NCBI GenBank assembly: GCA_964291405.2
Contig: OZ219926.1
Span: 2,816,001-2,880,000 of the forward strand
Direction of reading: 5' to 3'
From: Thermodesulfobacteriota bacterium
GTDB lineage: Bacteria > Desulfobacterota > Binatia > Bin18
DNA: 64,000 nt
Position numbers and translations under genes: made by a program. Shown one piece after another: positions 6,911 through 46,063 of the stretch (its first letter is position 1; each line of letters begins with the position of its first letter). The notes beneath the pieces are model-generated. The model was given only the letters and a program-made list of their open reading frames with translations. It had not been told where the DNA came from and made no database searches.

Positions 6911-6919
6911 GTAGTCCCT

Positions 6920-8398: not shown

Positions 8399-8414
8399 TC
8401 GGGGGAGAATGCCA

Positions 8415-14623: not shown

Positions 14624-14659
14624 AGGAGGCATCAGCATGGGAAAGCTTGACGGAAAAGT
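14624..14659 (+). repeat. 36-bp direct repeat, copy 1 (RBS plus first codons)
   Basis: AGGAGGCATCAGCATGGGAAAGCTTGACGGAAAAGT, identical at 16855-16890. Confidence 0.9.
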
Positions 14660-20506: not shown

Positions 20507-22158
20507 ATGCCAATCAGATCACTCACACTGTTGTTTCCGGTAATCGTCGGCTGTCTCATCTCCTCTTGCTCCCTGACACCAAATCGAATGCCCCCGATTC
20601 TCGAAGCAGCGATGGAGTTACCCGACGAGTTTGCCGAAAGTGAAGTTGCCGGCTCATACGAGCCGCTGGAGTGGTGGAAGGCGTTCGCCGACCCGGTTCT
20701 CGACCAGGTCATCGAAGCGGTGCTGGCCTCGAACTTCGACCTCGCCGAGGCGGTCGCCCGGGTCGACCAGGCCAGGGCGCGGGAGCGTATCGTCAAAGCC
20801 CCGGCGTTTCCGCTGCTTCAGCCTTCGGTGGAGATCACCGATATGGAGACATCTACCAATGCGGGTATTGCCGCGTACCTGGACGAATTGGGGGTGGGTT
20901 CCGACGTATACCGCGATTTTGGCTTCGAGATTCCCGATCGGATCGGCCTGACGACCTACGACCTGGGTCTTGACATCTCCTACGAACTTGACTTCTGGGG
21001 CCGCAATCGCAACGACGCGCATGCCGCCGGTGCCGAGCGGCGGGCTTCGGAGTCGGACTACCTGACAGCCCGCATGGGGTGCTGGCCGAAACCGTGCGCA
21101 CCTACCTGGAGATCGTCGACCTGCGCCACCAACGGCGGCTGGCCGGCGAAGTCGTGGAAATCTTTCAGCAGCGGGAGTCCTTGGCCGAGTCTCGTTACGA
21201 CCGCGGGCTGACCGGTGCACGCGCCCTCTATACGGCGCGGCAGAACCTGAGCAACGCGCAAACCAGGGTGCCGCAAATCGAGGCGCTGTTGGCGGACGCG
21301 AAAGGCCGACTTTGGGTGCTCCTGGGGGGGTACCATGCGGACCTCGCGGGCATATTGCCCGATTCCCTGACGCCCTCCGCCGCGCTCGACCCGGTTCCGG
21401 CAGGCATTCCGGCCGACCTCCTGGCACAACGGCCTGACGTCAACGCGGCAAGGCAGCGGATGGAAGCAGCCCGCTACACCGTTGGCGCACGCCGCGCGGA
21501 TTTGCTGCCGAGCTTATCCCTGTACGGTTCCATCGGGCTGCAAAGTGCCGAGGCGGGCGAGTGGTTCGACCCGGATCAATGGTTCCGGAACCTGAGCTTC
21601 AACTTGCTTGGCCCCGCATTTCAAGGTTCACGGCTGCGCAGCAACGTTGATCTCGCCGAGGCCCGGTGGAATGAAGCTGCCGCCGCCTACGGGCGTTCCG
21701 TGGTCAGCGCGGTCAACGAAGTCGAGGCCGCCCTGGCGGGGCTGGAGGCCAACCGCCGCCGGCATTCCCTGCTGGCTTCCAGGACGCAAGAGGCTCAGGC
21801 CGAAACGGTGTTGCAGGAACGGCGTTATGCCTCCGGAGTAGGTAGCTATGAGGATTTCCTGACGGCGACGCACACCCTCCTGGGCGCGCAATCCGCGCTG
21901 GCAGCGGCGCAGCGTGACCTGGGGCACGCGCGTCTTGTCCTGCATCGCGCGCTGGGGGGCGCGTGGACTGCAAAGAGTAAACGTGTCCTCCAATCACACA
22001 AAAAAGCGGGACACGTTTACTCTTTCAACGAAGGGGAAGCCATCCAGCAGAGTAACCTAGCTCCTGACACCAAGGAGGGAACGTGTCCTTCCTCGACCGG
22101 CAGATGCGGGACACGGTCCCTCTTTCAACCGCGTCGGCTTGTGAGCGCCCCGGAGTAA
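20507..22158 (+). CDS. Efflux outer-membrane lipoprotein (NodT/TolC family), frameshifted at about 21076-21080
   Basis: Lipobox ISSC, WWKAF.DP.LD, SYELDFWG; then in another frame LAETVRTY, PADLLAQRPDV, LHRALGGAW; the G-run ATGGGGTG lacks one base. Confidence 0.82.
21972..22025. repeat. 54-bp palindromic element, family A, copy 2
   Basis: Perfect 17-bp arms AAAGAGTAAACGTGTCC / GGACACGTTTACTCTTT, 20-nt spacer. Confidence 0.85.
22072..22125. repeat. 54-bp palindromic element, family A, copy 3
   Basis: AAGGAGGGAACGTGTCC-N20-GGACACGGTCCCTCTTT, exactly 100 bp after copy 2. Confidence 0.8.
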
Positions 22159-22164
22159 ATCACC

Positions 22165-23379
22165 ATGTCCCGCATTTTCAGCTTTGTCATTGCCGGCGCC
22201 ATCCTCAGTGTTTCAGTGGCGTTGGCGGCTTTTCTCATTTCACTGGCACCCGAACCGACCCGCACTGAACCCCCGCCCCAGATCCCGTTCGCGCAGACGG
22301 AACTGGTTTCGGCCGGCACCGGTCCCATACCGGTCTACGGGTCCGGTACCGTGAGGCCGAGCGCTGAGATCGGTATCGCACCGCAGGTGGGGGGGAAAAT
22401 CGACTGGGTGGACCCGGGATTCCAGAGCGGGGGACGGGTAACGGCGGGCCAGACGCTCATCCGCATAGAAGAGGCGGACTTTCTGTACCGGGTGCGGGAA
22501 GCCGAGGCCAATCTCGCCGCCCGGCGGGTAGCCCTCCTTGAGGAGGAGGAAAAAGCCGAAATTGCCCGAGTCCAATACGAACTGTATATCGCCGGCCAGG
22601 GAGATGCGGATGCGACGTCAGCCGCGAATCCCCTCACGCTGAGAGAGCCTCAATTGAACGCGGCGCGTGCCGCAGTGAGCCGCGACGAGGCCCGGCTCGC
22701 TGAAGCCAATCTTGCCCTGTCCAGGACCCGGGTCACGGCACCGTTCGACGGCTTCGTACGCGAAGAATCCGTGGACGTGGGACAAGTCGTCGCCGTCGGC
22801 CAGACCGTCGGCCTGCTTTTCGCTGCGGAGGCCGTGGAGGTGGTCGTGCCCTTGTCCGATTCCGACGCGGCACTGATCGCGGGACTTTGGGATCTCAGGG
22901 CGGGTGACGGGGTGCGACGGGTGGCGGCCCGTGTGGTCGCCCAGTACGGGGACGGGAGCTACGCCTGGGAGGGGTATGTGGATCGGGGCGAGCTATCCCT
23001 GGACAAACAAACGCGAACGATAGACGTGATCGTGCGTGTACCCGAACCGTTTACAACTGGTGTCCGGACGGACGGCTCCGATGTTGTCGGTGAGCGCCCT
23101 CCCTTGCTGGTAGGCAAGTTCGTAGATGTGGAAATCCACGGCCATGAATTGGATGGATACTACCGGGTGCCGCGAGCGGCATTACAATCTGGCAACGAGG
23201 TTTGGATTGTGAATGATGGCGGCGTGGTGAGTATCGTTCCGGTACAGGTCCTACAACGGACCAACGACGAGGTATATGTGACCGGCACCCTTGAAAGCGG
23301 CCAGACCGTCATCACCGGTGGAATCCGGTTTGCCACAGAAGGCATGCGCGTCCTGACGGCAGCTGACCCGACACCATGA
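22165..23379 (+). CDS. RND efflux periplasmic adaptor (membrane fusion protein)
   Basis: N-terminal TM, GTVRP..EI.IAPQVGGKI, TRVTAPFDG, TRTIDV, VPRAAL. Confidence 0.9.
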   Translation: MSRIFSFVIAGAILSVSVALAAFLISLAPEPTRTEPPPQIPFAQTELVSAGTGPIPVYGSGTVRPSAEIGIAPQVGGKIDWVDPGFQSGGRVTAGQTLIRIEEADFLYRVREAEANLAARRVALLEEEEKAEIARVQYELYIAGQGDADATSAANPLTLREPQLNAARAAVSRDEARLAEANLALSRTRVTAPFDGFVREESVDVGQVVAVGQTVGLLFAAEAVEVVVPLSDSDAALIAGLWDLRAGDGVRRVAARVVAQYGDGSYAWEGYVDRGELSLDKQTRTIDVIVRVPEPFTTGVRTDGSDVVGERPPLLVGKFVDVEIHGHELDGYYRVPRAALQSGNEVWIVNDGGVVSIVPVQVLQRTNDEVYVTGTLESGQTVITGGIRFATEGMRVLTAADPTP

Positions 23380-26300
23380 GTCCTGACAACGGCCCTCACA
23401 CGGAACCATCCGGCCCGATCGCCTACATGGCTGGCAACAGTGTCGCTGCCAATCTGTTGATGTGGGCCATCATCGCCGCCGGGCTGGTGTCACTGACCGG
23501 TCTGGAGCGCGAAGCGTGGCCCACGGTCCCATTCTACCATGTCGAAGTTTCAATGCCCTATCCCGGCGCCACCCCGGAAGAGGTGGAGGAGTCGATCATC
23601 GCCAAGATCGAGGACCAGGTCAGCGGGTTGGATGATGTCAAGGCGGTCAAGTCCGTCGCGGCCCCAGGTATGGCATCCGTGCGTATTCAAATGGATTCCC
23701 GTACGGACATGGATCGAGCGTTGGACGATATCGAGTCTGCCGTCAATCGTATAGAGTCTTTCCCGGCTGGTGCCGACCGTCCCCAATTCAGGGAGATGAC
23801 CAACCGCCAGAGCATGATGCGGCTCATCGTGTATGGCGATGTGCCCGAGCGCTCGCTCAAGGAATTGGCGTACCAGATCGAGGACGAACTCACGACACTT
23901 CCCTCCGTGTCCCAGGTCGAGGTCAGTGGTGTTCGGAAATACGAGATCTCTATCGAGGTACCGCTGCATCGGCTGAGAGCCCTTGGACTGACACTCCCCG
24001 GCATCGCCACCACGATTCATCGCAGTTCCCTGGACCTTTCTGCCGGCAGTATCGATACCAGGGAATCCCAGGTGCGGGTCCGGACCCTCGGCCAGAACTA
24101 TGACCAACAGGATTTCGAAGAGATCGTCCTTCTCAGCGGCAGTGACGGCACGGTATTGCGCCTCGGCGACATCGCCGAGGTCCGCGACGGTTTTCAGGAA
24201 ACCGACCTGATTGTCCGGCACCAGAACCATCCCGCCGTATTCGTCGAAGTCTACCGGGCCGATGATGAGCACGTGATGGATGTCGCCACGACCGTCCGAG
24301 AGCACCTGACGAACGAGGTGGTCCCGGCTCTGCCGGACGGTGTGGGCATCACCATCTGGAATGACGAATCCCAGGCCTATGAGGAACGCGCCGCTCTTCT
24401 CCTCAAGAACGGAGTTCTGGGCCTGTTGCTGGTGTTGATCGCCCTGAGCTTGTTTCTCGAAATTCGGCTCGCCCTGTGGGTCGCCGCCGGCATCGCCATT
24501 TCGGGTATCGGCACCCTGGCCGCCATGCTGGTACTCGACTATGCAATCAACACCATCAGCCTGTTTTCGTTTGTCCTCGCCATCGGTATTGTCGTCGACG
24601 ACGCGATCGTCGTAGCCGAGCACATTCAAGTACGAACGCAAGCGGGGAACACCCGGAGTCGCGGCGGCGATCCGCGGCGTCACGTCGGATCAAAGTGCCG
24701 TTGACATTCGCGGTGCTCACTTCGGTGGTGGCGTTCGTCCCACTACTATTTATCCCTGGTGGCGTCGGTAAGGTATGGGAGGCACTGCCGGTCATCATGA
24801 TCGCCATGCTGCTGGTTTCTCTGGTCGAATCGCTGTTCGTGTTGCCCAACCACCTATCCCACCTTCCCGGCCCGGACTGGGTGCCGACCAGCGCCTTCGA
24901 TCGGTTCTTCGCACGGATTCAGAGTTGTGTAAACGAATTGCTGAACAAGTTCGTACAAGGCCCCTTGGGTCGGGCGCTACAGTTTGCGACGGACCAGCCT
25001 GCGGTGACGATGGCGGGGGCAGTGGGAATGCTCATATTAAGTATCTCTCTGTTACCGGCGGGTATCGTCCCTACCACATTGGCCGCTGACGTCGAGGGGG
25101 ATTTCGCAACGGTCACTCTGGACATGCCCGATGGGACGACCGCGCCGAGGACATACGAGGTGGCGAAGGAACTGGAGGCCGCGGGCCACCGGGTCATCGA
25201 ACGACTGTCGCGCGGCCGACCCGAGGATGCACCTCCGTTGCTGACCGGCGTCACGGTGACCGTCGGACAGGGGCCGAGACTTGAGGGTGGGGGACTGAAT
25301 CCCGAGCCCACCCTCAATCCGCGGGCCAATATCGCCACCATCGAATTCAAACTCCTGGGCGCACAGCAGAGACAGCTCTCCACCAGAGAGGTCGTGCAGG
25401 CATGGCGCGAGGAGGTGGGAGTGCTGCCCTACGTGCGCGGTATCACCTTCAGCGGCGAGCTCATCGACCTGGGCAATCCGGTCGAGGCCGTGCTGTCGCA
25501 TCCTGACCCGGAGCGCCTCGCCCAGATCGCAGACTCCGTGGTCGATGGTCTCCGTGGAGTGAGAGGCATCTACGACATCCGTTCGGATCACACCCCAGGC
25601 ATCCCGGAAATACAGCTCGAACTGCGGCCGGAAGCGCGGACCCTGGGTCTCACGCTTGAAGAGTTGGCCGGGCAGACGCGCGCCGCATTTTTTGGAGCAG
25701 AGGCCGTCCGGGTGCAACGCGGCCGGGAAGAGGTCCGGGTCTACGTGCGTCTGCCCGCCGATGAGCGGAATGCCATCACCGATGTCGAAGGATATCTGCT
25801 CCGTACGCCGAGCGGGGCCGAGGTCCCGGTTACCAGTGTGGCCGTGCTGAACCCAGGCGTATCGCCGCCGGCCGTTCGACGGAGGGATGGTCAGCGCGTC
25901 GTCACGGTCACGGCGGACGTGGACCCCACGGTGATTTCCGGCGACGAAGCCAACAGCATTCTGACCAATTCGATCCTCGCGGACTTGACCGCCGTGTACC
26001 CGGACCTGACATACACGTTTGGAGGTGAACAACAAGAGCAACTCGAGTCCGTAGGTGCGCTGTATCGCGGGTTTGCGATTGCCTTACTCATGATTTTCGT
26101 GCTGCTCGCCATCCCCCTACGCTCCTATACCAAACCGTTCATCATCATGGCCGTTCTCCCGTTCGGGTTCATCGGCGTGATCCTGGGTCACTGGGTCCTG
26201 GGAGTAGCCCTGAGCGCAGTATCCTTTATGGGTATCTTCGGCCTCAGCGGCGTGGCTGTGAACGATTCCCTCGTCATGATCGATTTCATCGATCAGAAAC

Positions 26301-26614
26301 TCAGAGAAGGGGTCCCGATGCGCACGGCAATCATAGAGGGTGCTAAAGGGCGCTTTCGTCCGATCATGCTCACTTCCGTGACGACTTTCCTGGGCTTCAC
26401 CCCTCTCATTCTGGAACGCTCCATTCAGGCCCAGTTCCTGATCCCCTTTGCCGCGTCGCTCGGTTTCGGCATTCTCTTCACCACGGCCATCCTTATGATG
26501 GTCGTTCCGGCGTTATACGCGATCCAATTCCGGCTGATTTCTTCGCGTGGTAATTCTGGTGTCCCCGACACCTCGGTACACGCCCGATCCGCGAGCGAGA
26601 GCCTGCACGCGTAA
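23376..26614 (+). CDS. RND efflux permease (AcrB/AcrD/AcrF-like), with two apparent +1 indels at about 24629 and 24682
   Basis: YPGATPEEVEE, GIVVDDAIVVAEHI (TM4), GVAVNDSLVMID, RFRPIMLTSVTT; bridging segment YERKRGTPGVAAAIRGV lies in the third frame. Confidence 0.88.
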
Positions 26615-26759
26615 GCAAGCGTACGAACTCTGGACTGTAGACGATGTTCCTACTGAAGGACATTTTTCTACAGTTTTGCTATACAAGCGATCAGGCGCTG
26701 TGTATCTTCCATCAGAGACTCCTTAAAAAGTGCGCACAATGGAGGTGACACCCTTGGAA

Positions 26760-28754: not shown

Positions 28755-28908
28755 AGTCCCCATCGACGCGAGTTTCTCTTGCCCGGGAACGAGTGTCAAC
28801 GGTGGCAGGATTAGGAGTTGAACTACTCCGGCTTTCGGCCGAGCACAGAGTACATTGGCGTGAATATCCCCAACCGGTCGGATTCTGCAGACACTACCAA
28901 GATAAGAC

Positions 28909-28938
28909 TTGTCCCTCCCTAAACCGGAGAGCTATAAT
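28909..28938 (+). promoter_or_regulatory. Putative sigma70 promoter for the P450-2/sterol operon
   Basis: TTGTCC-N18-TATAAT, about 20 nt upstream of ATG 28958. Confidence 0.45.
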
Positions 28939-28957
28939 ACAGCAAGGGCGAAGACCT

Positions 28958-30982: not shown

Positions 30983-31004
30983 CAAATCGAACCAGGACGT
31001 TGGG

Positions 31005-32096: not shown

Positions 32097-32104
32097 AGGC
32101 AGGG

Positions 32105-36500: not shown

Positions 36501-36912
36501 CCCGGCGCTACGTCTGGCCTGCCGGTGGCTGCTGGACCGCCAGCATGAAGACGGGGGATGGGGTGAGCATCACAGCGGTTGCCTGACCGGCCGCTATGTC
36601 GCACATGAGGAAAGTCAGGTCATCCAAACCGCGTGGGCAATGATCGCGCTCCTCGAGGCAGACGATGCGGACTGGACCGCGATTGCGCGGGGTGCCCGGT
36701 TCTTGCTCAGCACCCAGGAGGCGGATGGGACATGGCCCAAGCAAGACATGGCCGGGGTCTTTTTTCGTACGGCGCTACTGGACTATGTCCTATATCGACA
36801 GTATTTTCCCCTGCACGCGCTCAGTCTCTACGAGCAGCGACGCCAAGCCCGGCTGGATCCGACGTCCCCCGTTCCACTTACCGCCGACGCGACTGGCTGG
36901 AGATGTTCTTAA
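33511..36912 (+). CDS. Squalene epoxidase (monooxygenase)-oxidosqualene cyclase fusion
   Basis: N-terminal GAGPVG, RLAGEWLHP, GADG, IGDAAGHYHPLTAVGMT; C-terminal QW repeats, SWGKFWL, WYCHTR, catalytic VTDCTAE, YVECT; ATGA overlap with cyp51. Confidence 0.88.
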   Translation: MSGTTLRPYDVAIVGAGPVGSVCALAHARKGARVALLEANPKASRRLAGEWLHPPAVQMLRDVGVELDTQPRSAAGKGFVVFPEDGSEPIVLPYPDGVQGLVCEHAALVSRLREAIENESGVDCMLHARVRAVEDGRVTFARNGADESVTAARIVGADGRASIVRQSLGLSTRPMTCSRMVGVILRGVSLPLEGYGHVLCGGPGPVLIYRLGEHYVRVIVDVPMAGWTPGDRIGFLSDAYAGVLPETMRPAFIEALRGGQFSVAVNNLSLRVTYGSPHRVLIGDAAGHYHPLTAVGMTLGFGDALTLAEGENFHDFTAKRLQATRAPEFLAMGFYEVFADHRAEVVAIRHAVYRRWRAKSTVRDRTMRLLACEDTSAAHLGREFGVTMARAVAGEMPRSSDQLAWRRARDIVYATAVRLWWLLRGLRQLHKARSAGGEKDGRFRDTLALAFPVSMPSRVSDPQPSRPREVASPEAGPALRRASARLLHLQDEEGGWEGEMVWCPMLTAQYVLLHHILERPLEPGRRRRVLRSFERTRLEGGLWGLHEHAPPSLFVTTLVYVATRLLGIERDDPFIEPARRFLQAEGVLGIPSWGKFWLALLNLYDWRGVNAILPELWSLPRWIALHPSNWYCHTRLIYMAMAAIYPHRFQAPVPPSIASLREELFPQGFANVDFSAGRNRLRDADLYARPSVWLRAGYECARLVERFHAKRLRTRCMEAIIRHIKWELQTTNHTSISPVSGLLNILALWLRDPHDTDAAQALAKLDDWIWEDEEGGARVTGARSTSWDTGFSLQALATVPELDGVQSALQRGADFLRRQQIGTSFAGFREAYRIDPKGGWCFAGGWHGWPVTDCTAEAVLGLIAADREATSPAALGEAIRFMLRGQNRDGGFGSYEAQRSVVGLEWLNPAEMFGDSMTEHSYVECTASCLAALAACQEHFPQITNGAVRRAIARADTWLRRTQASDGSWRGVWGVQFIYGTFFGVRGLLAAGARPGDPALRLACRWLLDRQHEDGGWGEHHSGCLTGRYVAHEESQVIQTAWAMIALLEADDADWTAIARGARFLLSTQEADGTWPKQDMAGVFFRTALLDYVLYRQYFPLHALSLYEQRRQARLDPTSPVPLTADATGWRCS

Positions 36913-37643
36913 TGGAATTTGAATCCGATGCGGCGCACGACAGCACAGGAGGCAAATTGGAATCGACCATGCGGGTAGCGGTATTGACTGGATTGGTGAT
37001 TGCCGTAACCACGGCAGCCTCTATCGGCTTCGGCTATGCCGTGCACGGCAATCTGAACGCTTACTACGGCCTGCTGAGCCTGTTTTTCTGCATCAACCTG
37101 CCGATCTGCTACTGGGAGATCTGCCTGTTCCTGCGACGCGACGCCGTCGAGCGACGTGCGGACTACTGGCGCGCCAGACGAAGAAAGACTGGTCGAACGC
37201 CGGCCGTTGAGTTTCTGTTGAGTGAGATTCCGCTGAGCAAGGCATTGTCCCCGATCGTCTGGGCGGACGTGTGGGCCACCTATAGCATGTACGACGGATC
37301 CTATGCCGACCGACGCACGTTCGGCTTCAACGCAGATATCGCCAACGGCTTTTTCACGCCAATCCCGGCCCTGGTTCTGCACGCGACCTTTGCGGTCGGT
37401 TTTTTGCCTGCCCTACTGGCGGGCATCCTGGGTGTGATGCTGTTTTGGCAGTGGACCTACGTCACGTCGGTTTACTTGGTGAGCTTTTTCGTAGCCAGGC
37501 GGCATAAGCAAATCGCGCGGGGCGATCTGTGGCTCTACATCTGGAGTACGAACTCGCCGTGGGTGCTCTTCGCGCTTCTGGGGCTCTATGTTTCCGTTCG
37601 ACTGATTGTCGATGGCGATTACGAGGTTCTGGGCCACCGGTAA
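36912..37643 (+). CDS. Membrane protein, EBP/EXPERA-like (candidate sterol delta8-delta7 isomerase)
   Basis: About 5 TM helices; WADVWATYSMYDGSY resembles EBP W..Y...D.RY; C-terminal N.PW; TAATG-coupled to the cyclase; alternative ATG at 36969. Confidence 0.55.
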   Translation: MEFESDAAHDSTGGKLESTMRVAVLTGLVIAVTTAASIGFGYAVHGNLNAYYGLLSLFFCINLPICYWEICLFLRRDAVERRADYWRARRRKTGRTPAVEFLLSEIPLSKALSPIVWADVWATYSMYDGSYADRRTFGFNADIANGFFTPIPALVLHATFAVGFLPALLAGILGVMLFWQWTYVTSVYLVSFFVARRHKQIARGDLWLYIWSTNSPWVLFALLGLYVSVRLIVDGDYEVLGHR

Positions 37644-37782
37644 CGTCCCGTTAGGCCACGCTCATTGCCTTCCTGCTCCCGACCCCGCGCGTGCGGCCCG
37701 AAAAAGCCGCAGTCCTCGGCGGATGCTTACGATGGGAATGGGCGACCTCGTGGAGGAACTCGGGGTCGAAAACCTACTTCGT

Positions 37783-38814
37783 TCAGTCTCCCGAGCGCCG
37801 GGGTTTACGGGCCAGGAAGAAATACATCGGTGTAAAAATACCGGACTCGCCACCGTCGACCAAGGCGTCCGCCGCCCTGTTTAACAGCGTGCTGACCGAG
37901 GCGGCGCCCTCCGGAAACACCCGCAACTTCTCGCCAACCCTCAACACCAGATTGGTCAAGGCGCGGCCAACGGGTGTGCGCGGAATACTCTTGAGACTGA
38001 GGTCGCGACCCTGCAAGGCGCGGTACCAGGGCGTTTCCGGATGCGATTCGGGGGCAAGGTCGTGGGATTCCAGGAGTTCGAATCCGGCCCCGCGCAATGC
38101 GGTGCATATCTCCGACGAGAAGGCGATATCCGGTAGTGCATCCCCCGCCATGATATCTTCCTTGATCCGCAGGTGCTCTGCGTTCCTCGGATCGAATTTC
38201 TCCGTGAGACACCAGTCGTAGCCCGCGAAACAAGCCCCCGGACGCAGGACGCGGAAGATCTCCCGGAACGCGGCAGTCTTGTCCGGTGCGTGGGGCATGG
38301 ACTCGATGGCAATGGCGGCATCGTAGTGGTCGTCACCTTCGGGAACGTGCATGTAGTCGCCGTGGATGAAACGGCACAACGACTGGACATCTCGGGTGTG
38401 CACTTTCGCGCGCTCGATCTGATAGGCGTTAGTGTTGATCCCGACGAAGCTGGCCCCGGAATAGCGGGCCAGATTGCCCATGGGCCCGCCTACCCCGCAC
38501 CCCGCATCGAGCACTTGCATCTCCGGTCCCAGGGACAGCCGATCGGCGAGAAAACGCTGGTGCCTGAGCAGCGACGCCTTGAAGCTCTCGCTCCGGCGCC
38601 GGGGAGCAAAGTGCCAGGACTGACCCCAGCCGAACTCGTAGAAATCGGTCACCAAGTCGTAGTAGTGATTGACGAGCAACTGATACCGCTCTTTTCTCCG
38701 CTCCGAGCCAGCATCGTGGAGCCCGGTGTATTGATCGACCACGGATTTCACTTCATCCGGGGCGAGATTCGCGAGGGAACGAGAGCTCGATCGTTTGGCG
38801 GGCGTACGGGTCAT
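37783..38814 (-). CDS. smt: Sterol 24-C-methyltransferase (SMT/ERG6-like)
   Basis: NHYYDLVTDFYEFGWGQSWHFAP (region I), LDAGCGVGGP (SAM), IESMPHAP, YDWC, GGESGIFTPMY. Confidence 0.93.
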   Translation of the reverse strand: MTRTPAKRSSSRSLANLAPDEVKSVVDQYTGLHDAGSERRKERYQLLVNHYYDLVTDFYEFGWGQSWHFAPRRRSESFKASLLRHQRFLADRLSLGPEMQVLDAGCGVGGPMGNLARYSGASFVGINTNAYQIERAKVHTRDVQSLCRFIHGDYMHVPEGDDHYDAAIAIESMPHAPDKTAAFREIFRVLRPGACFAGYDWCLTEKFDPRNAEHLRIKEDIMAGDALPDIAFSSEICTALRGAGFELLESHDLAPESHPETPWYRALQGRDLSLKSIPRTPVGRALTNLVLRVGEKLRVFPEGAASVSTLLNRAADALVDGGESGIFTPMYFFLARKPRRSGD

Positions 38815-38818
38815 TCGA

Positions 38819-39907
38819 TCATTCTCCGCTCTCCGTCCCGCGCGTCAAATACTCCCGCCACTTCCGCACCGTCACTTTTTGAAAAGCCCGGACCACCGGA
38901 TTGAGCTCGATAGGAGGGGCGTCCCAATGTCTCTCGTACCCCTGCTGCTCCGCTTCGACCGCAAATCGATCCTGGGCGAGTAAAGGGCCGATGAGCAGAC
39001 GGTTCGCGATCTTCAAAACCGTGGTCATGGCGAAACGGGGAATACGTACCGGCAGCAAAGGTATCTTCAGCGACTTGAAGTAGAACAGGAAGAACGTCCG
39101 GGTGGTCCGCTCATCGATTGGCAGCACAAAAAGCCAGTGTTTTATCTCGTCATCGGTGTTCGACCACTGATAGGGGTATTGAAAGCACAGCTCTATGTGA
39201 TTGGTGTCGAGCCGGTTGTGATCGACAAACAGCCCGGAGATACGCCCGCGTCCGACCCGCGTATCGTAGGCGAGGTGCACGTTGTCACCGACAGTCTCGC
39301 AACGGGTGAGGGTGGCGCCTTCGAAGGGACGGTATCGACGGTGCAGATGGGCGTGGGAGAAGTCGCTCACGTTGTCGATCACCATCGAGTGGTGGGCCGA
39401 CCAGGTGAAGCTGAGCGGGACACAGGCCCACCGCGCGGGTCCTTCGAGCTCGGGGATGTCCGGGATCTGGCGCCGCTGTGCCTGCTCCGGTTTCCCAGGG
39501 AACAACCAGATCAGACCGTAACGGACCGTCACGGGATAGGTCCTCAGCGAGACCTTCGGGAGACCTCGTCCGAAGCGGTCGTGGGGGATCTCGGCAAGGC
39601 GCCCGTTTTCATCATACTGCCAGCCATGGTAGGCGCACACGAGCCGGCAGCCTTGCACCTCGCCCAGGGAGAGTTTGAGCTGGCGATGCGCACAGCGATT
39701 CTCGACCGCGTGAAACGAGCCATCTATCCCGCGAAATAACGCAATGGAACGTTTCCAGAAAATGATCTCGACCACTGTGCCCGGTTTGACTCGGTGCGCT
39801 TCTTCAACCGCGTACCAGTAATCCGGGTCCAGACCCGCGGCGCGCGCTTGCTGACGCAAGCTGCCGGCCTCCTCGAAGCCGGAGGGCGCACTCGGTGCCG
39901 GGCTCAT
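38819..39907 (-). CDS. Rieske non-heme iron oxygenase (SdmA-like sterol C-4 demethylase candidate)
   Basis: WYAV, NRCAHR...CAYHGW, DNVSDFSHAHLH, QD; coupled to an upstream NAD-dependent reductase within the sterol cluster. Confidence 0.75.
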   Translation of the reverse strand: MSPAPSAPSGFEEAGSLRQQARAAGLDPDYWYAVEEAHRVKPGTVVEIIFWKRSIALFRGIDGSFHAVENRCAHRQLKLSLGEVQGCRLVCAYHGWQYDENGRLAEIPHDRFGRGLPKVSLRTYPVTVRYGLIWLFPGKPEQAQRRQIPDIPELEGPARWACVPLSFTWSAHHSMVIDNVSDFSHAHLHRRYRPFEGATLTRCETVGDNVHLAYDTRVGRGRISGLFVDHNRLDTNHIELCFQYPYQWSNTDDEIKHWLFVLPIDERTTRTFFLFYFKSLKIPLLPVRIPRFAMTTVLKIANRLLIGPLLAQDRFAVEAEQQGYERHWDAPPIELNPVVRAFQKVTVRKWREYLTRGTESGE

Positions 39908-41049
39908 TTCGGACCCCCAACGGAAGGCATCTGTATGCCTTGGCTCGGTATGAGGTTTTCCACTTGTTCCGTGGCGTTCACGCGCGGGCGTTTCGCGAGC
40001 GGATTCGTGATCGCGTTGCGGTGGTAGTGAAAGGCGTAGGCCTCATGAACCGCAGCCTGGATACTGGTTGGCTGATAGCCGAGCTCCCGTCTCGCTTTGC
40101 CGGTGTCGGCGTGACGGCGCTTTTGTAACAGGCGGATGGCGCCAGGGGTAAAACGCTGGGGAAAGCTCGGATGAAACCGGCTCAGATAAAAGCTCGCCGC
40201 TTCCGAAAAGACGAGCATCAGGCGGGTCGGGATTCGCCGGTGCGGTCGCGGCACGCCTGAGACCTCCTCGAACAGATCCAAGATGTCCGAGATGGTCTTG
40301 TACTCGCTGCTAAAGATGTACTTTTCGCCCGAGCGTCCTCGGTGCATGCACAACAGATGTCCTTCGACAATGTCCCGTGCCGCGACAAACTCGAAACCGC
40401 CATCAACGTACGCATAGAGCTTGCCGTTCGTGTAATCGCATAAGGTCCTGCCCAACCGCGAGGGGAAAAAATCGCTGCCCCCGACCACCGCACAACACGT
40501 TGCGACCACAACATCTTGTCCCGCCGCCGCGGCGCGCCAGCACTCGTGCTCGACGAGTGCCTTGCTACGCTCGTAGGGCATCGTGCGTTCCATGGGATAG
40601 AACTGCATCGTCTCGTCGCTGGGCGCGGACGGATCATCCAAATCATAACCGACCGCACTGAAAGAGCCCGTCACCACCACCCGGCCGGCCCCCGCCTCCC
40701 GCGCCGCTTGCAGCACGTTGCGGGTACCGAGAACGTTGCACTCGAATACTTCCCGGCGATGAGCGCGGTTGCCTTCGATGGTTGAAACCTTGGCCGCGCA
40801 GTGATAGACGCCTTGACAGCCCGTGAGCGCATGCCTGGCGGCATTCAAATCTCGGATGTCACCAAACGCGCGTTCAACCTCGAGGCCTTCCAGTGCTTCG
40901 TTGTTGTCCTCGTGTCTCAGCAACACCCGGACTCGAACGCCGTCGTCGAGCAGTCGGCGCACGAGATTGGCGCCCACATGCCCGGCCGCGCCGGTGACGA
41001 GAACGGGTGGCGTCGATGAGCCAGCAGATGTGCTTGATCGTGAGGTCAT
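39904..41049 (-). CDS. NAD(P)-dependent 3-beta-hydroxysteroid dehydrogenase/decarboxylase-like extended SDR (SdmB-like)
   Basis: VLVTGAAGHVG, GDIRD, YHCAA, NVLGT, YERSK; ATGA overlap with the Rieske gene. Confidence 0.75.
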   Translation of the reverse strand: MTSRSSTSAGSSTPPVLVTGAAGHVGANLVRRLLDDGVRVRVLLRHEDNNEALEGLEVERAFGDIRDLNAARHALTGCQGVYHCAAKVSTIEGNRAHRREVFECNVLGTRNVLQAAREAGAGRVVVTGSFSAVGYDLDDPSAPSDETMQFYPMERTMPYERSKALVEHECWRAAAAGQDVVVATCCAVVGGSDFFPSRLGRTLCDYTNGKLYAYVDGGFEFVAARDIVEGHLLCMHRGRSGEKYIFSSEYKTISDILDLFEEVSGVPRPHRRIPTRLMLVFSEAASFYLSRFHPSFPQRFTPGAIRLLQKRRHADTGKARRELGYQPTSIQAAVHEAYAFHYHRNAITNPLAKRPRVNATEQVENLIPSQGIQMPSVGGPK

Positions 41050-41239
41050 CTCGTCTAGTGTACTGCTTCCAAAGATACCGCCTCCTTGAGGCCGGGTCAA
41101 TACGTGGGTAAACGGGGTAGTAGGTCAAGTTTGCGATGTAAGTTATTGTTTCTACTGGCTAAAAAATTTCAAAGCATGTAGCCAACGGGCGAGGAACGCG
41201 CTATCTTTCTCCCATGCGATACGACTGGAGAAAAGAATA

Positions 41240-42606
41240 GTGCCGCGGCGCATAGCCATTGTCGGCGGCGGCATATCAGGGCTGGCGGCCGCGTGGGCGC
41301 TGGATCACGACCCGGACCGATTCGATTTTCGGCTGTTTGAGGCGCAGGACCGGATTGGCGGAAACGCGATCACTGCCGATATGCCGCAGGATGACGGCAG
41401 CTTCATTCCTTTCGATATTTCCGTCACCGCTTGCATTTCGTCGGGGTACCACCACATCCTGCTGTTGATGAAAAAGTTCGGCATCGAACTGCTCGATACC
41501 AGATTCAGCTACAGTGTGAAGTACCGTGGCGGCGTGTACGCCCACGATTTCGACTCCGACATCCGAGAGCAACTGCAATCCGAAATTGCGAAGTTTCAAC
41601 GAATCCTGAGGCGTCTGAAGTGGTTCGGTTGGCTGAGCCGGTCCCAATCGAAGTTTCTGAACGCCCTCAATCCGTTCAACTACATCAGCATGGGGACGGT
41701 CCTGAATCTGGCCGGTTTCTCCGGGGACTTCCGGTACAAGATACTGAAGCCCATGTTCGTCAACTTCCTGATGGCGACCAATGTGTTCGATATGCCTGCA
41801 TCTCTCTTTACGCGGTATCTCGAATTCTTTGATATCGAAAGCGCCACGCCCATGCAGACGTGGGACCGGGGAACACGACGTATCTACGAAAACCTGTCGG
41901 CCAATTTCCGGGACAAGATATGCCTCAACCGGCCTGTCCGAAAGGTGTATCGCCAGTCGTCCGGCATCGTGGTCGAGGACGAGGACGGTGTACAGGAGAC
42001 GTTCGACGAGGTGATCTTCGCCTGCAATGCGAACCAGACGCTGATGATCCTCGACAACCCCACGATGCTGGAGCGCTATATTCTCTCGTCGATCCGGTAC
42101 GAGAGCGAACTGCACAACCATACGGTCGTGCATTCGGACGCCTCAGTCCTTCCGGACAACGCAGTGCAGCCCCTGAAAACGCGGAGCAATCATATCGAGC
42201 AATACGGCGCCCGACCGGACAATTATGAAATCACCTACATCATGCACAACCAGCAGCCGTGGGCCAATCGGTCTGACAAGCCTTGTCTGGTAACCTACAA
42301 CCCCATCAGCGAAATCGATGGGAAGAAGATTATCGGAAAGTGGTGGTTCCAGCACATTGTGCATGACGTGCGCCACGTCGCCCTGCTCGTTCCTTTGTTC
42401 CGCTTCATTCAGGGCAAGAAAGGCAAACCTGGCACTGTGGCGCCCATACGCTGATCAACAGCCAGGAAACCTGCTTTGTCAGCGGGCTCGCCGCTGCAAC
42501 ACAGATCGGTGTGGATTATCCCTTCGACGATCCCGGGGCGCGGCGGGCGTTCAACCATTACGGGAGTATCATGTATGGTCGGGGGTTCAGGAAGGCGAAG
42601 GGCTGA
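41240..42606 (+). CDS. FAD-dependent oxidoreductase (COG2907/amine-oxidase-like), frameshifted at about 42420
   Basis: IAIVGGGISG, FEAQDRIGG; +1 frame continues QG.RQTWHCGAHTLINSQETCFVSGLAAA..IG..YPF to TGA at 42604-42606. Confidence 0.78.
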
Positions 42607-42642
42607 AGACCGGTACGACCGCATCCGCCACAGGATCACGGC

Positions 42643-43722
42643 TCACGGATGGGTGGATTTGACCTTGCCCGATTCCAGCCTTTCCGGCTGAAGCTCCGGA
42701 TAGAACTGCCGACAATAGCGACGGTATTTCCCTATGGGGCCGTCCGTCTGGCACAGCCGCGGGGAAGACCGATGCCGCTTCCGGTCCCAGATCACCACGT
42801 CCTGCAGCACCTCCCGTTTTTGCCATGAAAGCAGAATGTGTTTCATCAGCCTTTGGCGCAACTTCATCGGTACGAAACCCAGACCCGAGATGAACCGTCG
42901 GGGCTTGCGGATTTCCCGCAGTTGGCCGACCAGCACAAGATCGATGAGGGTGCCATCGATGGGTGTGGGAAGTACCCACAATCTCGCATCCATATCGATG
43001 GTTTTCTCGTGGATTTCGACGAAGGAGTAGCCCAGTCCATAGATGTGAGTGACGGCCGAGACGTCATACACGAGGTCTTTTACACCCAGGAGCCTGTGAA
43101 CGCTTTTGAAGTCGAAGCAACTCTTCAGGTAGGCGCCGTCCACTGTTACCGAACCGACCGGACTCACATTGTCGTAGCCGTGTACGTGGCCCAGGTGTCC
43201 GAGGTCCACGGAATTCTCCGCTGTTTCCTGGGGATGGCCGCGGAATCGGAGGGTCCGGAATCCCAACTCGCTCCACTCCGCACCGGTGGGTGGGTCACCT
43301 GGAAGGTCCCAATGCGGAGGCCGGCCGCCGCTCCCGAACCAGGCGAAGACCAGACCGAGGATTTCTCTGGTCTGGTATACCTTCAGTTTCGCGGCTCTGG
43401 GTGCCGGGGCGTTCGGAGTCGCAACGCATTGGCCGGTCGTATCGTACTCAAACCCGTGAAACGGACAGACGAGGCGACCGTTGCATACCTGGCCGCCAGC
43501 CTCCGGCCCCAGGTACGAGCCCAGGTGCGGACAGACCGCGTCGGCCACGCAGACACGGCCATCCTCGTCGCACCAGGCGACGATTTCCTCGCCCAGCCAC
43601 GTCTTCTCGATCAGTTTCTCTCGCAGAATGGACTCGCGGCTTGCGACGAAATACCACCCCTCAGGGAACGCTGGTAGCTCATCCATGCTAGTCATGGACA
43701 GTCTTTTGGTGTTCCTAGTCAT
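42643..43722 (-). CDS. Rieske oxygenase, Neverland/DAF-36/KshA-like (steroid desaturase/hydroxylase)
   Basis: FPEGWY, CPHLG...CPFHG, ENSVDLGHLGHVH, C-terminal DVVIWDRK...P.L...DGPI..YRRY..QFY; start may be 43695. Confidence 0.8.
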   Translation of the reverse strand: MTRNTKRLSMTSMDELPAFPEGWYFVASRESILREKLIEKTWLGEEIVAWCDEDGRVCVADAVCPHLGSYLGPEAGGQVCNGRLVCPFHGFEYDTTGQCVATPNAPAPRAAKLKVYQTREILGLVFAWFGSGGRPPHWDLPGDPPTGAEWSELGFRTLRFRGHPQETAENSVDLGHLGHVHGYDNVSPVGSVTVDGAYLKSCFDFKSVHRLLGVKDLVYDVSAVTHIYGLGYSFVEIHEKTIDMDARLWVLPTPIDGTLIDLVLVGQLREIRKPRRFISGLGFVPMKLRQRLMKHILLSWQKREVLQDVVIWDRKRHRSSPRLCQTDGPIGKYRRYCRQFYPELQPERLESGKVKSTHP

Positions 43723-45984: not shown

Positions 45985-46063
45985 GCGTTTTCGTGCTTAG
46001 CTAGGGATTCCGCCATCCGCTGCATGATAAGGATGGGTGTGTGCGAAGCACGGGAGGAGACGT

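Follow-up and report, generated by a model that had tools for sequence, protein, structure and literature searches.

A sterol gene cluster of the sponge-symbiont type joined to a putative tailoring and export module in a Binatia-like genome

Introduction

Sterol gene clusters resembling the one analyzed here have been described from sponge symbionts. The msb locus belongs to a gammaproteobacterial symbiont of Melophlus sarasinorum (Mohanty et al. 2020, PMC7074536). In MAGs from Ircinia sponges, 'clusters of steroid genes' (CSG) with an ERG24-CYP51-LSS operon were reported in 115 of 537 MAGs from 10 phyla, Binatia included, together with horizontal transfer, purifying selection, and an oppositely oriented SMT or FDFT1 (Kelly et al. 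2022, PMC9531527). Sponge-symbiont SMT was found clustered with sdmAB and a fused SMO/OSC, and in vitro these enzymes attach between one and three carbons at C-24 (Brown et al. 2023, PMC10070321). A protein joining GPP34 and P450 domains, GPP34_L, occurs in multiple divergent copies per genome in sponge symbionts only; it was proposed to be a secreted PI4P-binding effector, and flanking genes were analyzed for the short form only (Microbiome 2025, PMC11706023). The Methylococcus capsulatus pathway comprises CYP51, SdmAB and an NTF2-fold 8,14-Bsr (Lee et al. 2026, PMC13277303), and its BstABC transporters were described in eLife in 2024.

Here we analyze a cluster within a stretch of 64,000 nucleotides (the window). 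We conclude, with a probability of roughly 0.8, that the region encodes a sterol pathway that moves horizontally among sponge-associated bacteria, together with a proposed accessory tailoring and export module, carried in a Binatia-like genome. The sterol core is of a known kind; the accessory module, and the connection drawn here between it and sterols, appear to be undescribed.

Results

Gene content and the sterol core

Pfam and NCBIfam profile scans of the window located every gene family named in a first-pass annotation within 20507-43722 (Table 1), the EBP-like ORF being recognized by its predicted fold instead. The gene overlaps are also real and would fit the translational coupling claimed there: 4-nt overlaps join MFP to RND, CYP51 to SE-OSC and SdmB to SdmA, and the EBP-like start overlaps the SE-OSC stop by 1 nt (TAATG). 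The contig, whose placement had been left for checking, is bacterial and non-chimeric, with the same gene order in four Binatia MAGs. The implied novelty of the cluster was overstated, as the cluster type, with its fused epoxidase/cyclase, SdmAB and SMT, and its spread over sponge-symbiont phyla, Binatia among them, are already in print (Mohanty 2020, Kelly 2022, Brown 2023).

Table 1. Features of the cluster in window coordinates, with the basis of each assignment.
Feature	Position	Strand	Basis
Outer-membrane factor (OMF), TolC/OEP type	20507-22158	+	Pfam OEP on both pieces
Membrane-fusion protein (MFP), HlyD type, intact	22165-23379	+	Pfam HlyD_3, HlyD_D23
RND inner-membrane transporter, AcrB/MexB type	23376-26614	+	Pfam ACR_tran on both pieces
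GPP34-P450 fusion no. 1, 674 aa, clade A	26730-28754	+	Pfam GPP34 118 bits, p450 165 bits
GPP34-P450 fusion no. 2, 674 aa from ATG 28958, clade B	28958-30982	+	Pfam GPP34 101.6 bits, p450 111 bits
ERG4/ERG24-family sterol reductase, presumed C-14 reductase	31005-32096	+	Pfam ERG4_ERG24 235.9 bits
CYP51 sterol 14-alpha-demethylase	32105-33514	+	Pfam P450; 350 bits to Methylococcus capsulatus CYP51
Fused squalene epoxidase/oxidosqualene cyclase (SE-OSC), 1133 aa	33511-36912	+	Pfam SE, FAD_binding_3, SQHop_cyclase_N, SQHop_cyclase_C, single ORF
EBP/EXPERA-fold membrane protein, 243 aa, candidate delta8-delta7 isomerase	36912-37643	+	Predicted fold
Sterol C-24 methyltransferase (SMT)	37783-38814	-	Pfam Sterol_MT_C 77.9 bits, methyltransferase domains
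SdmA-like Rieske oxygenase, C-4 methyl oxidation	38819-39907	-	NCBIfam 4beta-methylsterol monooxygenase 410.2 bits
SdmB-like NAD(P)-dependent SDR, C-4 demethylation partner	39904-41100	-	NCBIfam SdmB 309.5 bits; Pfam Epimerase, 3Beta_HSD
Amine-oxidase-family flavoprotein	41240-42454	+	Pfam Amino_oxidase 65 bits
KshA/Neverland-class Rieske oxygenase	42643-43722	-	Pfam Rieske, KshA_C 78 bits

The core (ERG24-type reductase, CYP51, SE-OSC, EBP-fold protein, SMT and SdmA/SdmB) is the published sponge-symbiont sterol cluster type. Comparisons between loci refer to 80 kept related loci, namely those encoding an SE-OSC relative, and all sampled genomes were chosen for carrying SE-OSC. The ERG24-CYP51-SE/OSC order with SdmAB and SMT recurs in 62-71 of the 80, and the ERG4/ERG24 gene lies immediately upstream of CYP51 in 68. 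SE-OSC relatives are 68-94% identical across all 80 loci; 79 align from query residue 1-10 onward, and one ends at a contig edge. The 80 loci include MAGs named in the style of the CSG study (PMC9531527).

Conserved motifs accompany these matches. CYP51 aligns best, over its full length, with the Methylococcus capsulatus structures (6mcw/7jj1), followed by other CYP51 structures, and carries YQFTVPIFGRGVAYD and GQHTS, which we take to be CYP51 signatures. SE-OSC has the DCTAE catalytic motif and two QW motifs; its H...V signature is, in our understanding, mixed, and its product is not assignable. The SMT, with motifs YEFGWG and LDAGCGVGGP, is the sole match genome-wide; an ORF at 37691-38221 was rejected as a separate gene, being merely its antisense shadow. 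The SdmA-like protein, with Rieske and iron motifs present, and the SdmB-like protein both score below their NCBIfam equivalog cut-offs of 600, and their genes occur in 70 and 68 of the 80 loci. By ORF reading, all sterol genes are intact in this assembly, unlike OMF and RND.

A candidate sterol isomerase recognized by fold

The EBP-like ORF has no sequence match in Pfam, NCBIfam or PDB. The Pfam EBP profile itself gave no match on this protein and weak matches in just 2 of 51 relatives. The lead came from an Atlas cluster with EBP on 20% of its members. An AlphaFold (AF2) model of high confidence (pLDDT 94.7), searched with Foldseek against PDB, returned human EBP at ranks 1-2 (TM 0.51-0.63, E 0.012), with further matches below 0.25. 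The gene is present in 29 of the 80 loci at 50-94% identity, and the protein has 270 homologues in a representative library. The modeled fold makes it a candidate sterol delta8-delta7 isomerase.

Signs of horizontal transfer

Across MAGs whose names refer to roughly a dozen higher taxa, SE-OSC identity runs at 68-94%, and outside Binatia at 68-83%. In contrast, the housekeeping protein Dxr reaches only 40-56% identity in 34 non-Binatia genomes (39 genomes searched, of which three Binatia relatives matched at 94-98% and two had no match to this query). Because SE-OSC identity across taxa is far above that of Dxr, horizontal transfer of the sterol cluster is indicated from these sequence comparisons. 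GC content is 0.61-0.63 in the pump and core blocks of the cluster versus 0.54-0.59 in the left flank.

GPP34-P450 fusions and the accessory module

Both of the genome's fused GPP34-P450 genes with an intact ORF lie within the cluster. The first, with heme motif FGIGPHSCLG, has no orthologue at the equivalent position in Binatia relatives; of its 94 homologues (best identity 84-89%), 92 are recorded with GPP34 and P450 and the other 2 only with P450. The second is 89% identical in related locus L003 and 68-79% identical in Nitrospirales and Opitutales loci. In 23 of the 80 loci, SE-OSC has an ORF with a GPP34 domain no more than 10 kb away, and in four more that ORF is cut by the locus edge; we estimate that random placement would yield fewer than one.

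This association is concentrated in clade B of the family tree, where 41 of 43 sampled members adjoin the sterol core or a repeatedly found set of AcrB-type pump, KshA-like Rieske, flavoprotein and second SMT (22 the core, 18 accessory genes, plus window copy 2) and 2 adjoin neither. Among 30 GPP34-P450 neighborhoods far from the core, at least one accessory gene was found in 18: RND (at least 65% identity) in 11, KshA-like in 14, flavoprotein in 4 and a second-type SMT in 4. The KshA-like copies there are 60-67% identical and partner clade-B GPP34-P450. The flavoprotein copies there are 80-84% identical, and the gene also occurs in 22 of the 80 core loci (66-97%). In many other phyla the accessory module lies elsewhere in the genome, while in the window it is joined to the core.

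The closest solved relative of the KshA-like protein is KshA (84 bits), and its Atlas clusters include 'cholesterol 7-desaturase family'. For the flavoprotein it is LkcE (76 bits), with 2b9w, a putative aminooxidase that we take to be a fatty-acid double-bond isomerase, at 32 bits.

The proposal that these fusions are secreted PI4P-binding effectors against sponge phagocytosis would place them near sterol genes through horizontally shared 'symbiosis' DNA. It fits the clear Pfam GPP34 domain and the report, in the accessible text of PMC11706023, that GPP34-P450 is expressed and exclusive to sponge symbionts. Furthermore, 12 of 52 sampled long copies have no sterol or accessory gene nearby, and in 5 of 9 genomes of a deliberately mixed sample the single long copy lies 0.14-2.5 Mb from the core. 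However, a P450 requires heme and cytoplasmic redox partners, and by eye neither window copy has an obvious signal peptide at its N-terminus. Clade A directly adjoins a sulfotransferase in 8 of 9 loci, the usual hydroxylate-then-sulfate layout, and GPP34 is also found fused to Rieske, sulfotransferase and MFS domains. The words sterol, steroid, efflux and RND are absent from the main text of PMC11706023, and our literature search found no paper tying GPP34-P450 fusions to sterols. We consider the effector role distinctly unlikely here; gene neighborhoods make it more likely that the fusions are lipid (sterol) tailoring enzymes.

A tripartite pump with three frameshifts

A one-base deletion near 21078 breaks the OMF gene into two ORFs (20507-21211 and 21079-22158): the gene is 96% identical to its counterpart in related locus L005, a single ORF of about 550 aa, and the sole 1-nt gap between them falls at 21078. 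Two single-base insertions, near 24631 and 24680, divide RND between the ORFs 23376-24704 and 24476-26614, which cover Pfam ACR_tran profile positions 9-413 and 421-1019. In related locus L004 RND is an intact ORF of 1058 aa, relative to which the window has two extra bases. MFP is 90-91% identical in L004 and L005. The same pump occurs intact in other genomes, in company with GPP34-P450 and the KshA-like gene.

It is possible, at a little short of an even chance, that the frameshifts are assembly consensus errors and that the strain's pump is intact and exporting. All three are absent from related MAGs, L004 and L005 among them, and from four public runs, in which every covering contig has the in-frame version (an extra base at 21074/21075 in OMF, one base fewer at each RND site). 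MFP and all sterol genes are intact, and two sites resemble typical long-read miscalls: a G4 versus G5 run against the X1 variant in OMF, and AA versus A against the closest X1 contig at one RND site. But the runs lack the window's own strain (at most 0.73 of sampled words shared; 6 mismatches in 274 bases for the nearest run contig at the RND site), so their in-frame contigs cannot test the three sites. The 6 kb of pump genes contain three frame changes, and the roughly 17 kb of sterol genes none. A decayed sulfotransferase/GPP34-P450 locus elsewhere in the genome, with stops and several frame changes (86-87% nucleotide identity versus 93% in its upstream flank), indicates that accessory-gene decay occurs in this lineage.

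A further question is whether the pump is a general multidrug efflux system, without a sterol role, that incidentally lies next to the cluster. The best solved relatives of the L004 RND are AcrB, MexB and MdtB (253 bits), a class of broad-range efflux pumps; the pump adjoins SE-OSC in only 5-6 of the 80 loci and, with three frameshifts, is seemingly dispensable in this assembly. Against this, 11 of the 30 off-core loci, from several phyla, also have this pump beside the KshA-like gene and a clade-B GPP34-P450, with identities of 65-78% for RND, 49-76% for OMF and 56-69% for MFP. RND copies from different phyla are much more alike than Dxr, and RND therefore moves with the module. An incidental multidrug pump is unlikely.

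Proposed pathway and product

From homology and synteny, one fused protein would epoxidize and cyclize squalene, CYP51 would remove the C-14 methyl with subsequent delta-14 saturation by the ERG24-type reductase, SdmA/SdmB would demethylate C-4, and the single SMT would methylate C-24. The EBP-fold membrane protein following the cyclase may shift the double bond from delta8 to delta7. Gene neighborhoods suggest an accessory module of clade-B GPP34-P450, KshA-like Rieske, flavoprotein and AcrAB-TolC-type pump, in which the P450 and the Rieske enzyme could oxidize the sterol. The N-terminal GPP34 domain might keep an otherwise soluble P450 at the membrane or pass lipid to it. The pump might carry the product to the envelope or outside the cell, which is doubtful for this strain. 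The first-pass annotation had proposed both manufacture and export of sterols. Homology and synteny bear out a pathway starting at squalene with demethylation at C-14 and C-4, C-14 reduction and methylation at C-24, whereas export finds no support in this assembly because OMF and RND read as frameshifted.

The recommended search for squalene synthase or HpnCDE found two SQS_PSY genes (one above the HpnD cut-off), along with a squalene-hopene cyclase, all elsewhere in the genome. Such squalene-synthase-family genes weigh against the cluster remodeling sponge-host sterols instead of making them de novo, as do SE-OSC, CYP51, the C-14 reductase and the C-4 demethylases, which are only sensible on a squalene-derived pathway. 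Remodeling would accord with a homologue of CYP204-type steroid side-chain-cleaving P450 and a lipid-transfer-type thiolase just downstream, and with the acceptance of desmosterol and 24-methylenecholesterol by the SMTs in the accessible text of Brown et al. (PMC10070321). We regard it as very unlikely. The genome search found no clear homologue of ERG3 (C-5 desaturase) or DHCR24 (delta-24 reductase), so the pathway may stop at a simpler 24-methyl sterol of the delta-8 or delta-7 type. Outside the cluster the genome has a further ERG4/ERG24 gene, of divergent sequence.

Comparison with known systems

As far as the accessible text of PMC7074536 goes, the msb locus has the same six core genes (overlapping SdmB/SdmA, sterol reductase, C-14 demethylase, epoxidase/cyclase and SMT), and in both genomes squalene synthase lies elsewhere. 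The msb locus ends in genes unlike sterol genes, whereas in the window the core is flanked by two GPP34-P450 genes, the pump, the EBP-fold protein, the flavoprotein and the KshA-like oxygenase, with SdmAB and SMT downstream on the opposite strand. The accessible CSG text (PMC9531527) annotates no SdmAB, EBP-fold gene, GPP34-P450, KshA-like gene, flavoprotein or pump, all of which the window has. In the main text of Brown et al. (PMC10070321) the words P450, Rieske and transporter do not occur; the window genome has one SMT, and relatives have two to four copies.

The window fusions share the two-domain architecture of GPP34_L as given in the accessible part of PMC11706023, but here the long forms have sterol genes, a Rieske oxygenase, a pump and sulfotransferases as their neighbors. 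Likeness to Methylococcus capsulatus, so far as its published accounts are accessible, extends to CYP51 (the closest solved relative), SdmAB-type C-4 demethylation and sterol genes adjoining transport genes. The window differs in having an ERG24-type reductase rather than the NTF2-fold 8,14-Bsr (PMC13277303), a CYP51 without fused or adjacent ferredoxin, and a pump that is a tripartite AcrB-type system.

Results

Sterol genes of the cluster and their identities

The first-pass annotation had described a cluster of about 23 kb for making, modifying and exporting C-24-alkylated sterols. ORF listing and profile scans recovered every gene family of its inventory within that region, laid out as in the table below, with overlaps of 1-4 nt between four gene pairs. 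The genes for the ERG24-type reductase, CYP51 and the cyclase are consecutive on one strand, with gaps of 8 and -4 nt, and their order was the same in the related loci inspected. Squalene epoxidase and oxidosqualene cyclase are fused in a single ORF (SE-OSC) carrying SE and SQHop_cyclase domains, and the cluster also contains an SMT gene and an overlapping SDR/Rieske pair (SdmB/SdmA). A scan of the fused cyclase against one genome per prokaryotic species returned 416 stretches with relatives, of which the best 80 were kept. Among these best 80 of 416, SE-OSC relatives aligned from query residue 1-10 onward in 79/80, the motif xxHGWPV[ST]DCTAE was present in 79/80, SdmA in 70/80, SdmB in 68/80 and SMT in 62/80.

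Table. Positions of features in the window and of loci elsewhere that are discussed in the text (G000, genome of the window; L003, L004, Binatia MAG loci; other L-numbers, loci from related genomes or MAGs)
Feature	Position	Strand	Remarks
Sterol cluster	20507-43722		about 23 kb
Outer-membrane factor (OMF), membrane-fusion protein (MFP), RND transporter	first in 20507-43722	+	from profile scans
OMF frame change	near 21078
RND frame changes	near 24631 and near 24680
GPP34-P450 no. 1	26730-28754	+	after pump genes; 674 aa; GPP34 N-terminal, P450 C-terminal; clade A
GPP34-P450 no. 2	28958-30982	+	after pump genes; 674 aa; GPP34 N-terminal, P450 C-terminal; clade B
ERG4/ERG24-family reductase, P450 (CYP51), SE-OSC	31005-36912	+	after GPP34-P450 pair; SE-OSC 1133 aa
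P450 (CYP51)	32105-33514	+
Membrane protein (EBP-fold)	36912-37643	+	243 aa
SMT, Rieske oxygenase (SdmA-like), SDR (SdmB-like)	downstream of 243-aa gene	-
Rejected ORF	37691-38221	+	176 aa
Amine-oxidase-family flavoprotein	end of region	+
Rieske/KshA_C oxygenase (KshA-like)	end of region	-
Neighbouring P450	44563-45984		about 850 bp past cluster
Neighbouring P450 and thiolase	44563-47215
Glutamine-synthetase-like gene, then ring-hydroxylating Rieske oxygenase alpha subunit	6920-9764		left flank
Type III glutamine synthetase	14637-16787		left flank
Second Rieske/KshA_C oxygenase of relatives	L003:4090-5094; L004 about 6146-7150
Decayed sulfotransferase/clade-A/MFS locus	G000:C3:3016383-3021205		outside window
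Squalene-hopene cyclase	G000:C3 about 3660100-3662100 (L086:6088-8124)
Clade-A loci with Sulfotransferase_3 neighbour	L091, L092, L093, L095, L101, L102, L103, L114

By sequence, the P450 between reductase and cyclase is a CYP51. It matches the Methylococcus capsulatus enzyme (6mcw) over its full length at 350 bits, ahead of other solved CYP51s; the first 56 solved structures among the matches listed are CYP51/14-alpha-demethylases except 9wat, and the next class follows at 136 bits. Its translation contains YQFTVPIFGRGVAYD and GQHTS, which we take to be the CYP51 B'-helix and helix-I signatures, and both are absent from the neighbouring P450 past the cluster.

The cyclase carries HGWPVTDCTAE at residue 853 and no DxDDT; DCTAE is the catalytic motif of oxidosqualene cyclases, and DxDD that of squalene-hopene cyclases. 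At the product-specifying positions it has His where lanosterol synthases have Cys/Gln, and Val where cycloartenol synthases have Ile, a signature that is presumably neither cleanly lanosterol nor cleanly cycloartenol. The text of Mohanty et al. takes the corresponding Val as a sign of lanosterol (PMC7074536).

SdmA is the best NCBIfam family for the Rieske oxygenase (410.2 bits), and SdmB for the SDR (309.5 bits). These are by far the best-scoring families, yet neither protein reaches the equivalog cut-off of 600 bits that each family has, and we therefore call them SdmA-like and SdmB-like rather than equivalogs. The SMT scores 77.9 bits against Sterol_MT_C (cut-off 21.7) and contains a SAM-binding motif together with YEFGWG, the sterol-binding motif of sterol C-24 methyltransferases. 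The 176-aa ORF opposite this gene was rejected as an antisense shadow of the SMT; its 'homologues' in 60 loci coincide with SMT genes everywhere. Homology of the core genes thus bears out sterol synthesis and C-24 methylation as originally read; the 'highly processed' product of that reading is putative.

A probable isomerase with the EBP fold

The 243-aa membrane protein encoded after the cyclase had no useful match by sequence in Pfam (E up to 10), NCBIfam or the PDB, and a PDB search with a profile of 51 relatives also gave none. The Pfam EBP family (PF05241) had 0 matches on the protein at E up to 10 and none genome-wide; 2/51 relatives matched it weakly (E 0.003). The representative library holds 270 relatives, and an AlphaFold model built on them reached a pLDDT of 94.7 and a pTM of 0.90. 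In a Foldseek search of the PDB with this model, human EBP, the sterol delta8-delta7 isomerase, took ranks 1-2 (probability 1.00, TM 0.51-0.63 over 215-217 columns, E 0.012 and 0.21). Another EXPERA protein, the sigma-2 receptor, appeared at ranks 37 and 47, the next unrelated matches had TM < 0.25, and a protein-atlas lead agreed with the fold search. D128, N145, Y188 and W217 are invariant in the family and E69 is nearly so. An apparent confinement of the ORF to Binatia was rejected, as a trimmed-protein search finds the gene after the cyclase in 29/80 of the related loci (best 80 of 416). From the modelled fold, the product is probably an EBP-type isomerase.

Squalene supply and further sterol steps

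The genome has two squalene/phytoene-synthase-family genes outside the window, one adjoining dxr and scoring above the HpnD cut-off, the other a divergent 379-aa form; squalene should thus be available. The genome also encodes a squalene-hopene cyclase (NCBIfam equivalog, 688 bits). Hopanoid and sterol cyclases therefore occur in the same genome, and the organism, judged from its genes, probably makes hopanoids too.

No convincing ERG3 or DHCR24 was found genome-wide; one FA_hydroxylase protein was not accepted as ERG3, being fused to a rhodanese domain. A second, divergent ERG4/ERG24 protein (123 bits) lies elsewhere in the genome in an unrelated neighbourhood. 8,14-Bsr (NTF2 fold) was set aside as an identity for the unassigned genes, none of which belongs to that family. 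The flavoprotein is distant from its solved relatives (LkcE 76 bits, 2b9w 32 bits).

A horizontally shared cluster in sponge-associated bacteria

The contig to which the window belongs is 4.9 Mb long, and the genome is 97.5% complete. Among the kept 80 loci, the closest cyclase relatives come from MAGs titled Candidatus Binatia (89-94%), with the same gene order. Other kept relatives, 68-83% identical, come by MAG title from Nitrospirales, Gamma- and Alphaproteobacteria, Acidimicrobiales, Bryobacterales, Vicinamibacterales, Opitutales, Nitrospinaceae, Syntrophobacterales, Rhodothermales, Longimicrobiales and others, and several cyclase-bearing MAGs have sponge-derived names (Porisulfidus, Poriferihabitaceae). 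As a housekeeping control we used Dxr as the query against 39 of the cyclase-bearing genomes: the three Binatia genomes gave identities of 94-98%, 34 others gave 40-56%, and two of the 39 had no match. The cluster is thus present in sponge-associated bacteria of many phyla at a gene identity above the housekeeping (Dxr) level.

GC content is 0.61-0.63 in the pump and core versus 0.54-0.59 in the left flank. Runs labelled 'sponge metagenome' contain 0.24-0.40 of sampled pump-region words, and one of them (X9) has contigs at 90-99% identity to the region; six RNA runs contain 0.05-0.09 of the sampled words. From the relatives, the Dxr control, the GC content and the sponge runs, we conclude that the contig is bacterial and not chimeric, as the first-pass interpretation requires, and that the cluster is horizontally shared among sponge-associated bacteria.

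GPP34-P450 fusions sit beside sterol genes

In both window copies GPP34 lies N-terminal to the P450 within one ORF, and 92/94 homologues have both domains. A GPP34-domain ORF occurs within 10 kb of the fused cyclase in 23/80 loci (best 80 of 416), and is cut by the locus edge in four more. With one to few copies per 2-7-Mb genome, we estimate that chance would give <1 such locus.

We then located GPP34 matches in 39 cyclase-bearing genomes and fetched 30 neighbourhoods of long copies (GPP34 plus P450) that lie away from the core. An RND transporter 65-78% identical to that of the window was present in 11/30, with OMF and MFP also in ten of the 11; a KshA-like oxygenase (60-67% identical) in 14/30; the flavoprotein (80-84%) in 4/30; and a second-type SMT (42-48%) in 4/30. 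Altogether, 18/30 contained at least one of these four. In several loci the KshA-like gene lies right next to the fusion on the same strand, and the window's KshA-like protein has the Rieske domain, the KshA_C catalytic domain and the metal motifs. One further gene family, found in 5 accessory loci and absent from the window, proved to be a transketolase and is probably ordinary flanking DNA.

A maximum-likelihood tree of 54 long fusions (quick search, midpoint root) splits into two clades, each with an SH-aLRT of 99. Of the 43 fusions in clade B, 22 adjoin the core, 18 adjoin accessory genes and 2 adjoin neither; the remaining one is window copy 2. Clade A (n=11) comprises window copy 1 and 10 fusions with none of the core or accessory genes. 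A hand tally of 53 long GPP34 copies in the 39 genomes, less reliable than these scripted counts, counted 21 close to the core, 19 accompanied by accessory genes and 13 with neither. All sampled genomes were chosen for carrying the cyclase. The short GPP34 gene of the window's genome adjoins a thiolase and a CoA-transferase, with no sterol genes.

Clade-A fusions pair with sulfotransferases

A sulfotransferase lies directly beside the clade-A fusion, on the same strand, in 8/9 clade-A loci; the ninth (L112) has no Sulfotransferase_3 neighbour. An MFS transporter follows the fusion in Binatia, and one locus (L103) also has a fused NAD_binding_4 reductase-sulfotransferase. Homologues of fusion no. 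1 with extra domains combine these functions in single proteins, namely sulfotransferase+GPP34+P450 (P0179, 649 aa) and GPP34+MFS+P450 (P0223, 953 aa). The clade-A/sulfotransferase pairs suggest a lipid pathway of hydroxylation followed by sulfation.

In the genome of the window, the sulfotransferase/clade-A/MFS locus has decayed: fragments of the sulfotransferase are spread over three frames, two in-frame stops interrupt the fusion, whose GPP34 half is scrambled, and MFS is intact (94%). The same locus is intact in relatives L091-L093.

Interrupted frames in the pump genes

The OMF, MFP and RND genes are adjacent, as in an AcrAB-TolC-type tripartite pump, and the RND protein is AcrB/MexB-like. 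The OMF has one frame change and the RND two, and each reads as two ORFs. Compared with Binatia MAG L005, whose OMF is a single ORF of about 550 aa, the window lacks one base; compared with L004, whose RND is a single 1058-aa ORF, it has one extra base at each of two sites. No other uncompensated mid-gene frame change was found across the locus in comparison with four Binatia relatives.

Whether these changes are consensus errors of the assembly or real decay stands at near even odds. At two of the three sites the difference may be one of run length (G4/G5, AA/A), as is typical of consensus errors, whereas an unmistakably decayed locus, that of the sulfotransferase and clade-A fusion, exists elsewhere in the same genome. 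Contigs of four public runs covering the pump region were all in-frame at all three sites; these runs share <=73% of sampled words with the window, and the nearest run contig at the RND site has 6 mismatches in 274 bases, so that the window's own strain is absent from them and the comparison is not decisive. Whether the frame changes reflect decay or error, they do not allow export by this pump to be claimed for this strain. The genes that the first-pass annotation had taken for an exporter are indeed present, but with the OMF and RND frames interrupted, export itself is doubtful here.

Turnover of tailoring genes, and the flanks

The stretch from pump to reductase varies among Binatia. The window has a clade-A and a clade-B fusion; L003 has a second KshA-like oxygenase and a clade-B fusion, L004 the oxygenase only, and L005 nothing. 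This second Rieske/KshA_C oxygenase is ~25% identical to the window's KshA-like protein and occupies the position of the window's clade-A fusion. A third fusion separates the flavoprotein gene from the KshA-like gene in L003, L004 and L006, an interval of 188 nt in the window. The window has a single SMT, L003, L005 and the related locus L075 have two each (in tandem in L003 and L075), and L004 has three or four; in other phyla the accessory module comes with a second, divergent type of SMT (42-48% identical). Within the cluster it is clearly the tailoring genes that change fastest.

The P450 past the cluster scores 552 bits to CYP204A3 (PDB 9WAT); it shares 34% identity with the CYP51 of the window, whose motifs it lacks. 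In 2025 the bacterial CYP204 family was shown to cut off sterol side chains, with pregnenolone or progesterone as the products. The P450 is followed by a lipid-transfer-type thiolase; L006 has both genes in synteny, whereas loci of other phyla lack them next to the cluster, and the pair probably belongs to the native flank. On the left, the glutamine-synthetase-like and Rieske alpha-subunit genes and the type III glutamine synthetase showed no relation to the sterol genes.

Discussion

We propose, at a probability of roughly 40%, that the GPP34-P450 fusions act as tailoring enzymes in a sterol pathway that bacteria share by horizontal transfer. Clade B, together with the KshA-like Rieske oxygenase, the flavoprotein and a dedicated AcrB-type pump, would oxidise and export symbiont-made 24-alkyl sterols, while clade A, together with sulfotransferases and MFS exporters, would make sulfated derivatives. 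In eukaryotes GPP34 is a helical domain that binds lipid headgroups, and microsomal P450s have an N-terminal membrane anchor. The GPP34 domain of the fusions may likewise tether a soluble bacterial P450 to the membrane, or may present lipid to it.

A 2025 study in Microbiome proposed a different role for GPP34 proteins, as effectors that are secreted, bind PI4P and keep phagosomes from maturing (PMC11706023). Its main text counts 656 GPP34+P450 proteins, all from sponge symbionts, describes a flanking-gene analysis limited to the short GPP34 form, and mentions rare GPP34+Rieske fusions, which fit a metabolic role; the words sterol, steroid, efflux, RND and methyltransferase are absent from that main text. 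In the genomes studied here the P450 lies beside an oxygenase, a methyltransferase, a sulfotransferase or an exporter, in or next to the sterol pathway, and this positional evidence favours the metabolic role, with the effector role as a less probable alternative. Gene neighbourhoods, in genomes all selected for the cyclase, thus suggest the link between GPP34 and sterols. A literature search with main-text word counts found no paper tying the two together; the supplementary tables of Kelly 2022, Brown 2023 and PMC11706023 may list some of the accessory genes.

Our results join two separate published observations, sterol clusters and sponge-specific GPP34-P450 fusions. Judged by gene position, the fusions, the KshA-like oxygenase, the flavoprotein, the pump and the sulfotransferases may be the missing tailoring and export steps, and the link provides concrete candidate genes for a bacterial delta8-delta7 isomerase and for later oxidation steps. 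A metabolic role is also a testable alternative to the phagocytosis-effector idea, and offers a way to ask if symbionts deliver modified sterols to their host. If the proposal is true, some of the unusual oxidised or sulfated sterols of sponges could come from bacteria of a dozen phyla, and a P450 would have acquired the eukaryote-like GPP34 domain as a module that targets it to lipids or membranes.

C-24-alkylated steranes are interpreted as fossil traces of early animals and algae, an interpretation that is weakened by a complete bacterial route in sponge symbionts, as the main text of Brown et al. already argues in drawing its biomarker conclusion from symbiont SMTs that methylate C-24 up to three times in vitro (PMC10070321). 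The text of Mohanty et al. 2020 describes an msb locus with exactly the same six core genes, including the bifunctional epoxidase/cyclase (PMC7074536), and the main text of Kelly et al. 2022 reports an ERG24-CYP51-LSS operon in 115/537 Ircinia MAGs of 10 phyla, including Binatia, with horizontal transfer and purifying selection on the operon (PMC9531527). The central idea of the first-pass annotation is therefore sound but not new, its core having been published in 2020-2023, and the window adds one more well-assembled example. What appears to be new is the accessory module and the suggested link of GPP34-P450 fusions to sterol, and sulfo-lipid, metabolism. The core itself shares four features with the known msb/CSG systems: a consecutive reductase, CYP51 and cyclase, the SE-OSC fusion, the SdmB/SdmA pair with SMT, and a spread across many phyla of sponge bacteria.
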